The notes under the pieces are model-generated. The model saw only the letters and a program-made list of their open reading frames with translations, was not told the origin of the DNA and ran no database searches. Shown here one piece after another: positions 59,944-60,400 of a stretch of 64,000 nucleotides of DNA. The first letter of the stretch is position 1. Each line of letters begins with the position of its first letter. The translations under genes were made by a program, and so were the position numbers. Source of the stretch: Candidatus Magasanikiibacteriota bacterium (GTDB taxonomy: Bacteria; Patescibacteriota; Patescibacteriia; Magasanikbacterales; GWA2-37-8); contig CAWJAS010000001.1 in NCBI GenBank assembly GCA_963840935.1, positions 45,902 to 109,901 of the forward strand, written 5' to 3'.

Positions 59944-60014
59944 GGAAGGGTGGCTGAGCGGTCGAAAGCGACAGTCTTGAAAACTGTTGTCCATGAAAGT
60001 GGACCGTGGGTTCG
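59944..60014 (+). pseudogene. 5' partial copy of tRNA-Ser(TGA), nt 1 to T-loop position ~57
   Basis: 71 nt identical to 60314-60384, then diverging within the T-loop (GGTTCG|CCACGGG...). Confidence 0.8.
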
Positions 60015-60068
60015 CCACGGGATGAACCCGTGGCGCCCCGAGTTTATCTCGGGGCGAATCAATGCCTT

Positions 60069-60350
60069 ATGTATTACGTGTATATTTTAAAAAGTTTAAA
60101 GGATAATAAATTATATACCGGTTATACTAACGATTTAAAACGTCGAATGGATGAGCATAATTATGGTAAAGTAGAATCAACGAAAAATAGGCGTCCTTTA
60201 AAGTTGATTTGTTATGAAGCGTATTTGGATAAAGAAACAGCATCAAAAAGAGAAGAGTTTTTAAAAACAAGCGATGGTAAAATAGACATAAAGCGTCGTT
60301 TAAAAAAATATTTGGAAGGGTGGCTGAGCGGTCGAAAGCGACAGTCTTGA
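60069..60350 (+). CDS. GIY-YIG domain-only protein (YhbQ/UPF0213-like) inserted at the T-loop of tRNA-Ser(TGA); its 3' end overlaps the downstream tRNA
   Basis: MYYVYILKSLKDNKLYTGYTNDLKRRMDEHN matches GIY-YIG motifs; stop codon lies in the tRNA anticodon loop. Confidence 0.75.
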   Translation: MYYVYILKSLKDNKLYTGYTNDLKRRMDEHNYGKVESTKNRRPLKLICYEAYLDKETASKREEFLKTSDGKIDIKRRLKKYLEGWLSGRKRQS

Positions 60351-60400
60351 AAACTGTTGTCCATGAAAGTGGACCGTGGGTTCGAATCCCACCCCTTCCG
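60314..60400 (+). tRNA. tRNA-Ser(TGA)
   Basis: 87 nt with long variable arm; anticodon loop CTTGAAA; T-arm GTGGGTTCGAATCCCAC. Confidence 0.85.

Follow-up and report, generated by a model that had tools for sequence, protein, structure and literature searches.

In the 64,000-nt stretch of Candidatus Magasanikiibacteriota DNA analysed here (the window), the complete gene for tRNA-Ser(UGA) is preceded by a truncated copy of itself, two hairpins and an open reading frame (ORF) for a very small GIY-YIG nuclease. Together these form a cassette of ~370 bp (59942-60313) with one 93-aa ORF inside, and the order along the DNA is promoter, tRNA nt 1-71, two perfect hairpins at the T-loop sequence TTCG^AATC, leader, GIY-YIG ORF and complete tRNA-Ser(UGA). 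All positions are those of the window unless a locus is named; the loci gathered for comparison carry L numbers. The features of the locus are as follows.

59905-59933, plus strand: promoter-like site, TTGATT and TAAAAT at a spacing of 17 with a TG extension, now ahead of the truncated tRNA copy
59942-60014, plus strand: left repeat copy, 2 nt of flank and tRNA nt 1-71, ending at T-loop G57
60013-60035: hairpin A, CGCCACGGGATGAACCCGTGGCG, arms CCACGGG and CCCGTGG around ATGAA, a perfect 9-bp stem with the flanking CG
60034-60056: hairpin B, CGCCCCGAGTTTATCTCGGGGCG, arms CCCCGAG and CTCGGGG around TTTAT, a perfect 9-bp stem with the flanking CG
60057-60068, plus strand: T-loop remnant AATC(A) and short leader ahead of the start codon
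60069-60350, plus strand: GIY-YIG (UPF0213/Slx1-like) nuclease ORF, 93 aa, PF01541
60314-60401, plus strand: intact tRNA-Ser(UGA) (ARAGORN 60314-60401; Rfam end 60400, 63.2 bits)

A repeat finder run on the window returns an exact 73-nt direct repeat (59942-60014 = 60312-60384) that consists of 2 nt of flank and tRNA-Ser(UGA) nt 1-71, its right copy being the first 71 nt of the intact gene. A BLAST search with the tRNA against the window likewise matches nt 1-71 at 59944-60014 with 100% identity, and so the exact 71-nt copy reported in the initial annotation stands. From the sequence, the break can be placed between T-loop positions G57 (60384) and A58; the same annotation had the copy diverge at 57/58 into two hairpins, and this is confirmed, both hairpins being perfect. 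Hairpin A lies at the midpoint of the T-loop sequence TTCG^AA, the two hairpins have one CG in common (the first of hairpin B), and AATC comes next. The breakpoint had also been said to coincide with the junction used by 3' repeat elements in the window, and it does: the 3' tRNA fragment in the element behind tRNA-Ser(UGA), AATCCCACCCCTTCCGC at 60548-60564, begins at A58.

The left copy with its hairpins scores 24.5 bits as a tRNA in Rfam, below the 29-bit threshold. When this region is folded as RNA, both hairpins are seen, together with a 5-bp 'acceptor' pairing with the leader; because the leader sequence differs at the orthologous locus L210, that pairing cannot form there. A tRNA-like fold of the truncated copy was rejected on these two grounds.

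The ORF matches the GIY-YIG profile PF01541 over residues 1-67 (E = 2.3e-17, 63.5 bits against a cut-off of 22.6), as the initial annotation had anticipated in naming the family; the length given there, 94 aa, has to be corrected to 93. No NCBIfam model matches the protein. The nearest solved relatives in a profile search are the UPF0213 proteins BH0048 (1zg2, E = 1.4e-12) and EF2693 (1ywl, E = 2.7e-09), and residues Y5, Y16, G18, R26, H30, E50 and E62 (the two Tyr motifs, Arg, His and Glu) are invariant across 41 relatives including the window protein. Judged by its size and nearest similarities, the protein belongs to the UPF0213/YhbQ (Slx1-like) subfamily, and it consists of a single GIY-YIG catalytic domain of ~82 aa with no DNA-binding domain. 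Homologues are 82-88 aa long and match only the first 87-90% of it; because they end there, the last ~10 aa (EGWLSGRKRQS) are a read-through tail encoded by the tRNA. The natural end of ORFs in this family lies near 60314, and the last 12 codons and the stop fall inside the tRNA. The stop, which had been placed in the anticodon loop, is the anticodon triplet TGA itself (60348-60350). Loss of the ORF's own stop codon, with reading on to the anticodon, would be an accident of this lineage.

The predicted transcription start of the promoter-like site falls at about the beginning of the repeat, and the intergenic DNA around the site is identical at 78 of 80 positions in L210. This had been taken for the only promoter. 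The promoter-like site is indeed present ahead of the truncated copy, but there is a second match (9/12), ending at 60312; since that match lies only 2 nt ahead of the intact tRNA, it is badly placed for a complete tRNA transcript. No terminator-like site was found within 59944-60400, and with the promoter upstream and no terminator between, co-transcription of the ORF and the tRNA is likely, as had been proposed. The nuclease mRNA would then come from the tRNA promoter as part of a co-transcript, from which RNase P may free the tRNA.

An ORF within a seemingly interrupted tRNA suggests a tRNA intron, either group I or bulge-helix-bulge, with a homing endonuclease, and removal of 60015-60384 does formally rebuild a tRNA. 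However, a scan of Rfam at E <= 1 gave tRNA hits only and no intron family, and with only 12 nt outside the hairpins and the ORF there is too little sequence for a ribozyme. No splicing is needed, because a complete tRNA lies downstream. Among 55 hairpin modules from the loci described below, not one is flanked on both sides by the rest of a complete tRNA, so that an intron-like role is excluded, and the left copy with hairpins stays below the tRNA threshold. The initial annotation was therefore right to set group I introns aside. Nor is the layout an assembly artefact, which it had left as a possibility, for four sources of assemblies made independently (NCBI, JGI, ENA and Logan) all show it; we regard both explanations as refuted.

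The orthologous locus can be found in other genomes through the neighbouring YgjP-like gene. In L210, where the neighbour protein is 82% identical, the same cassette stands in the same place. In L211 (a 241-kb contig) and L213 (a 329-kb contig), the site is empty: an intact tRNA-Ser(UGA) follows the promoter directly, and the tRNA of L211 has the same sequence as the one in the window. Relatives lacking the insert, proposed earlier as a comparison, are thus available, and the cassette is sporadically present and absent at one orthologous site, which is a mark of homing genes.

The occupied pair also allows selection to be assessed. Between the window and L210, the ORF is identical at 211 of 245 nt, with 7, 2 and 25 differences at codon positions 1, 2 and 3, and the proteins agree at 88 of 94 residues; 25 of the 34 changes being at third positions, purifying selection acts on the ORF. 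In the hairpin module 39 of 42 positions agree, and two of the three changes make up a compensatory pair, C-G to T-A, in the stem of hairpin A in L210; the leader agrees at 6 of 12. The left tRNA copy is identical throughout (71/71), and because it is unchanged despite divergence at 25 of 81 third positions of the ORF (~31%), it is actively maintained; either selection or gene conversion with the intact tRNA must be at work.

Purifying selection would also be expected of a fixed host gene, that is, a useful small nuclease behind a strong tRNA promoter, with the repeat and hairpins as by-products of local duplication. The UPF0213 family is widespread and single-copy in many bacteria, and little connects the ORF with defence or phages: PADLOC gave no hit, PHROG a weak one only, and a protein search of IMG/VR no relatives, a DNA pattern scan of the same database giving one candidate match. 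A role as a defence gene and an origin from phages were rejected on these results. Even so, we consider a fixed host gene quite unlikely. The site is empty in related genomes, the same ORF clade is found at many different tRNAs (see below), there are tandem arrays, ORF-less derivatives and foreign tRNA fragments, and relatives are inserted within other genes at fixed points.

A further comparison with L210 concerns what follows the tRNA. Both the 163-nt stretch 60402-60564 and the large serine recombinase of the window are missing from L210, and the two are therefore separate, later insertions in the window. This bears on the idea that the partial tRNA copy is the att repeat of the recombinase element (62087 to ~60655, minus strand) and the GIY-YIG gene the cargo of an integrase island or prophage relic. 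Loops of tRNAs are classical crossover sites for integrases, the large serine recombinase lies 250 nt past the tRNAs, and comparable recombinases adjoin tRNA-Ser in L014 and L100. Yet the complete cassette of L210, with no recombinase beside it, largely refutes the idea; there is no recombinase within reach in 32 of 35 related loci, the repeat holds the 5' rather than the 3' part of the tRNA, and the repeat starts are only 370 bp apart. An integrase relic thus appears highly improbable.

The arrangement recurs at other tRNA genes. L001, L002 and L003 (three independent assemblies) and L004 have the same layout on tRNA-Ser(GCU), in the order tRNA nt 1 to GGTTCG, near-identical hairpins, AATCC, leader, ORF and intact tRNA. 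A protein-based, context-blind scan with one genome per species gave 80 loci, whose host labels are mostly Patescibacteria groups, although the organism labels of metagenome bins may be wrong. A scan of metagenomes for the DNA pattern GGTTCG-hairpin-hairpin-AATC gave at least 120 loci; among the matches listed, 46 have true double hairpins, and the remainder are chance hits in GC-rich DNA. All gathered loci together contain 119 family ORFs, of which 43 have a same-strand tRNA that starts -60 to +130 nt from the stop codon, and a copy of the 5' part of that tRNA is present upstream of the ORF in 40 of these 43. Twelve of the tRNA-associated loci came from the context-blind protein scan (80 genomes).

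The tRNA copy begins at nt 1, with 0-6 nt of further identity upstream (tandem arrays excepted), and it ends in a loop. The targets are tRNA-Ser with anticodons TGA, GCT, CGA and GGA, and the tRNAs for Gln, Cys, Asp, Asn, Trp and Lys; one ORF/hairpin clade occupies all four Ser isoacceptors. Mostly the junction is the T-loop TTCG^AATCC. In L179 and L201, on tRNA-Ser(CGA), it falls in the anticodon loop instead, at CTCG^AAATC, with the same TCG^AA, and in L083 and L057 it lies in the D-loop. Left copies are interrupted by hairpins or diverged in L006, L010, L060, L088 and L119. Tandem arrays and ORF-less derivatives are seen in L169, L119, L097, L181, L150, L166 and L179: the unit of tRNA 5' part, hairpins and ORF is repeated at spacings of 405 and 427 nt among the tandem-array loci, an ORF-less unit of 127 nt stands on tRNA-Gly, and 3' units are repeated at ~90 nt. 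No conserved partner gene was found in 35 loci. In sum, these loci show a unit that is conserved, under selection and sporadically present, and that has no conserved partner gene.

Contigs of independent assemblies often end at or inside the tRNA repeats (L205-L209, L001-L004). The exact repeats of 56-76 nt explain many of the metagenome contig ends at such tRNA loci, and because the cassettes fragment metagenome assemblies they may be under-counted. Truncated tRNA copies and read-through ORFs are also traps for annotation.

Of the 80 loci from the protein scan, most lack a tRNA in the vicinity. These relatives (L009, L011, L015-L018, L020-L023, L025-L052 and others) are 54-65% identical to the window ORF and carry no tRNA repeats. 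Instead, their ORFs come after a conserved motif, TTCACCCTGTTAAATAATTTTAAAT, sometimes with an inverted copy past the stop, and they split conserved genes at fixed points: GxxExxY (after ...GFLEAVY), 23S-IVS four-helix-bundle and ORF6N-like genes, named here from reading of the flanking sequence rather than from a profile search. In a neighbour-joining tree, the non-tRNA ORFs form a clade apart from the tRNA-associated ORFs, within whose clades the tRNA identities are intermixed. They are a second kind of tiny GIY-YIG cassette. The initial annotation had named the same ORF at unrelated loci without flanking tRNA duplication as something that would speak against its view; such loci were found for this separate, distant clade but not for the clade of the window ORF.

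The hairpins are as regular a part of the cassette as the ORF. The stems of 43 distinct modules, which come in 25 different sequences, contain 649 Watson-Crick pairs against 2 G-T and 4 A-C, and they covary between loci; to go by these sequence counts, the pairing is strongly selected. Because an excess of G-U wobble pairs is absent, they point to a role at the level of DNA rather than RNA, and selection at the RNA level is disfavoured on the same ground. The loops of paired hairpins, ATNC and GNAT, are reverse complements, so that the module is a pseudo-dyad; the T-loop core TTCGAA is itself palindromic, and CG flanks every hairpin, giving TT[CG]-hairpin-[CG]-hairpin-[CG]AA. AATCC stands directly 3' of the hairpins in all related loci, and hairpin B is also present in L001, L005, L157, L169, L210 and L147.

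Hairpins are found beyond the ORF-bearing units and beyond the T-loop. The same CG-hairpin-CG-hairpin-CG structure sits inside the D-loop at L083, and additional hairpins accumulate in the D, anticodon and variable loops of left copies, as in L205 and L208, which have an extra hairpin in the D-loop of the first tRNA copy. ORF-less modules stand after intact tRNAs and are followed by a tRNA 3' part, sometimes in tandem; in L150, L170 and L019, an ORF-bearing unit lies upstream and an ORF-less unit downstream of the same tRNA. The 3' units have conserved internal spacers, and sometimes up to 26 nt of flank, or more, is duplicated. Within the 64 kb of the window, its hairpin type is found once only. 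The GC-rich contig of L147 (reverse strand 3601-3820) carries the double hairpin of the window (56 nt, 98% identical) after a tRNA-Ser(UGA), and the 3' fragment attached to these hairpins matches a different tRNA-Ser, not the local one; this is evidence of transfer between very different genomes. Left copies are foreign to the local tRNA in L188 and L202 as well, and together the three loci indicate that the tRNA fragment travels with the element.

A 20-nt palindrome, CCTGCCTGCCGGNAGGCAGG, occurs at the same D-loop position of truncated tRNA copies at unrelated loci, on tRNA-Ser and tRNA-Asn (L205 56-75, L208 31-50 and L008 1989-2008; also L047, L144 and L176). As it is present in intergenic DNA of other contigs too, it appears to be a dispersed mini-palindrome.

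The constant order of copy, hairpins and ORF brings to mind IscB loci with their omega-RNA, and the cassette could be pictured as an RNA-guided nuclease, with the tRNA copy as guide, the hairpins as scaffold and base pairing directing the protein to tRNA genes. The copy is identical to its target (0/71 changes), the break falls exactly at the junction of copy and hairpins, the protein has no DNA-binding domain, and a promoter precedes the entire unit, in which there is no terminator. On the other hand, the stems show no G-U excess, many left copies are interrupted or diverged (the five loci listed above), the non-tRNA relatives have no such copy, and the intact downstream tRNA would be a self-target. 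To our knowledge, no RNA-guided GIY-YIG enzyme has been described, and we think a guide function very unlikely.

More can be said for a DNA-level alternative in which the hairpins are a mobile unit resembling repetitive extragenic palindromes (REPs) and bacterial interspersed mosaic elements (BIMEs), with the GIY-YIG protein as a Slx1-like, structure-specific partner nuclease. It would cut in the loop of an extruded cloverleaf or hairpin and at the base of the acceptor stem, and fill-in of these staggered cuts, placed by DNA structure, would make a target-site duplication of tRNA length at each insertion. This would suit the near-exclusive Watson-Crick pairing, the reverse-complement loops of a pseudo-dyad module in the palindrome TTCGAA with CG at every junction, and the placement of the family in the Slx1 cluster of GIY-YIG proteins (PMC1564403). 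The same hairpin structure in the D-loop of L083, the extra hairpins in other loops of left copies, the ORF-less hairpin units at tRNA 3' ends, repeat boundaries no more than 6 nt from the tRNA ends on both sides and the same module in an AT-rich and a GC-rich genome all fit as well. What it does not lead one to expect are the foreign tRNA fragments of L147, L188 and L202, since a duplication is made from the target; they weaken the idea that the repeat arises solely by de novo duplication of the target site. The left copy is, moreover, maintained over time and not merely created once, the 3' units have conserved spacers and at times the duplicated flank noted above, the hairpin type is present only once in 64 kb, and GIY-YIG enzymes are hydrolytic, strand transfer not being known for them. 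Such a hairpin-directed element seems to us unlikely, both as regards the partnership of hairpins and nuclease and as regards the duplication at each insertion.

The balance tips, if modestly, towards reading 59942-60313 as a small selfish mobile cassette of the homing type, which sits in the transcription unit of an essential tRNA gene and uses tRNA sequence as its homology arm. The cassette would spread by recombination between its tRNA fragment and the resident tRNA gene, either by homing or in the manner of Campbell, and this recombination would be the mirror image of that of a tRNA-integrating island. The trigger is probably a nuclease break at TCG^AA in the loop of the tRNA gene, a putative cleavage to which the constant junctions TTCG^AATCC and CTCG^AAATC point indirectly. 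On this view the tRNA gene would stay functional because the cassette brings or regenerates the tRNA 5' part, and the start of the repeat at tRNA nt 1 would mark the limit of what the genomes have in common, namely tRNA sequence. Recombination through the tRNA fragment would explain why some fragments are foreign and why the copies keep their identity; tandem arrays could arise by misaligned repair after cutting of an occupied allele, and ORF-less derivatives by deletion between repeats. The initial annotation had likewise likened the locus to an integrative element in mirror image, with the 5' portion of the tRNA as identity segment, and the foreign fragments that travel in L188, L202 and L147 favour that view.

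Several observations sit awkwardly with the homing-type cassette. The T-loop of the downstream tRNA is intact and identical to that of the empty allele, so that the insertion has not destroyed its site, as a homing gene would be expected to do, and a T-loop-specific nuclease would cut occupied alleles too. The protein is a catalytic domain of ~82 aa alone, and relatives of 60-65% identity occupy quite different sites. If the cassette simply homed into a non-cognate tRNA, the downstream tRNA should be chimeric; with one clade at four Ser isoacceptors and perfect local copies there, further steps, for example template switching or gene conversion, must be assumed. The hairpins are given no role in the homing model. 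As to the supporting data, L209 is probably a further empty site, although its sequence comes from a k-mer assembly and the contig breaks off within the tRNA; and since the pattern scan presupposes GGTTCG...AATC, the uniformity of junctions in the metagenome set is partly by design.

In view of the hairpins, a bolder interpretation can be considered, which we put forward tentatively as possible rather than probable: a new class of mobile element in which a minimal 82-aa GIY-YIG protein and perfect DNA hairpins, serving as structure or guide, recognise TCG^AA in the loops of tRNA genes and insert beside the gene, carrying or regenerating a tRNA fragment. If true, this would be a hairpin-directed, tRNA-templated mechanism of transposition or homing unlike those of known homing endonucleases, insertion sequence (IS) elements and integrases, and it would account for the many tRNA fragments and hairpin insertions around Patescibacteria tRNA genes.

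If the cassette is selfish, as we favour, it shows how such a gene can settle at an essential, single-copy tRNA gene of a minimal genome and leave the host alive, by supplying a spare 5' part of the tRNA and borrowing its promoter, and confirmation of the mechanism would make it the mirror-image counterpart of the classical 3'-end tRNA integration by islands and phages. For part of the UPF0213 family, which is widespread but uncharacterised, the locus supplies a first biological behaviour. It may also throw light on how a nuclease that is only a catalytic domain attains site specificity, with possible use as a very small programmable or structure-specific nuclease.

Other elements of the window lie at tRNA genes as well.

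60569-60654: tRNA-Ser(CGA) (ARAGORN and Rfam)
62087 to 60300, minus strand: ORF of the large serine recombinase (Resolvase, Recombinase and Zn ribbon; nearest NCBIfam models CcrB and XisF)
60402-60564; 53666-53876, 9104-9304 and 400-606 (minus strand): four elements of ~150-170 nt
54266-54514, minus strand: second, distant GIY-YIG ORF, 82 aa, 44% identical, between tRNA-Ala(UGC) and tRNA-Phe

The four elements of ~150-170 nt stand directly 3' of the genes for tRNA-Ser(UGA), tRNA-Pro(UGG), tRNA-Arg(CCU) and tRNA-Ala(GGC), and each terminates in a 17-19-nt tRNA copy that runs from T-loop nt 58 to the 3' end. They are homologous to one another (70% mean column identity) and contain an inverted T-arm-like sequence, GGATTYGAACGCC. 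The recombinase is flanked by a perfect inverted repeat of 80 nt and another of 27 nt (60649-60755, 62141-62386), of which the left arm begins 6 nt inside tRNA-Ser(CGA); its reading frame continues without a stop, antisense, through both tRNAs. Between the stop of the second GIY-YIG ORF and tRNA-Phe there is a 32-nt tandem repeat in 4.8 copies (54109-54260), each unit holding tRNA-Phe nt 1-8 (GCCGAGGT) in a hairpin with CTCGGC. The motif GCCCTGTAAAC is present upstream of this ORF and again after tRNA-Phe.

No description of the arrangement of tRNA 5' copy, hairpins and GIY-YIG gene was found in the literature searched, and as far as we could find, a homing-type selfish cassette with a mirror-image tRNA repeat is apparently undescribed; several known systems nevertheless share part of it. 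REPs and BIMEs with their associated tyrosine transposases (RAYTs) likewise combine short, near-perfect palindromes in alternating orientation with one small nuclease gene and dispersed ORF-less copies. RAYTs, however, are HUH/Y1 enzymes and REPs are extragenic with no link to tRNA loops, whereas the cassette has a GIY-YIG gene as its only ORF and sits at TCG^AA in tRNA-gene loops. Proteins of the BH0048, EF2693 and Escherichia coli YhbQ type are, like the cassette protein, single-domain GIY-YIG proteins of ~100 aa, and in the literature searched neither a function, nor a genomic behaviour, nor a tRNA association is described for these UPF0213 members.

Among homing endonucleases, the nearest likeness is with SegB, whose free-standing GIY-YIG gene lies in the tRNA gene cluster of phage T4; it too lies outside any intron, by tRNA genes, and has a sporadic distribution, and its spread is attributed to break-induced gene conversion in which flanking tRNA sequence is carried along (PMC2330249). 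The Seg proteins are several times larger than the ~82-aa catalytic domain of the cassette, have DNA-binding domains and are phage-borne, and their genes are without tRNA 5' duplication, hairpin module or use of a tRNA promoter. In Patescibacteria themselves, tRNA genes harbour group I introns, some with homing endonuclease genes, which are likewise selfish insertions in tRNA genes in the same phylum (PMC13011429). These are spliced ribozymes placed in the anticodon loop, for example at 35/36, with no exon duplication, and their endonucleases are HNH, LAGLIDADG or PD-(D/E)XK enzymes; the words T-loop, duplicat-, truncated and palindrom- are absent from this 2026 survey (PMC13011429).

Islands and prophages that integrate into tRNA genes share with the cassette an insertion in a tRNA loop, a carried tRNA part that keeps the gene intact and a partial repeat that marks the other end. 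Their integrases are of the tyrosine or serine type, and the crossover takes place in the T-loop or the anticodon loop. Such islands carry the 3' part of the tRNA together with an integrase and are kilobases long, whereas the cassette carries the 5' part in 370 bp, with hairpins at the junction and no integrase; when the locus is viewed as an integrative element, the direct tRNA repeat is present but holds the 5' part where normally the 3' part is found. The ORF-less 3' units, for their part, resemble miniature tRNA-integrating islands.

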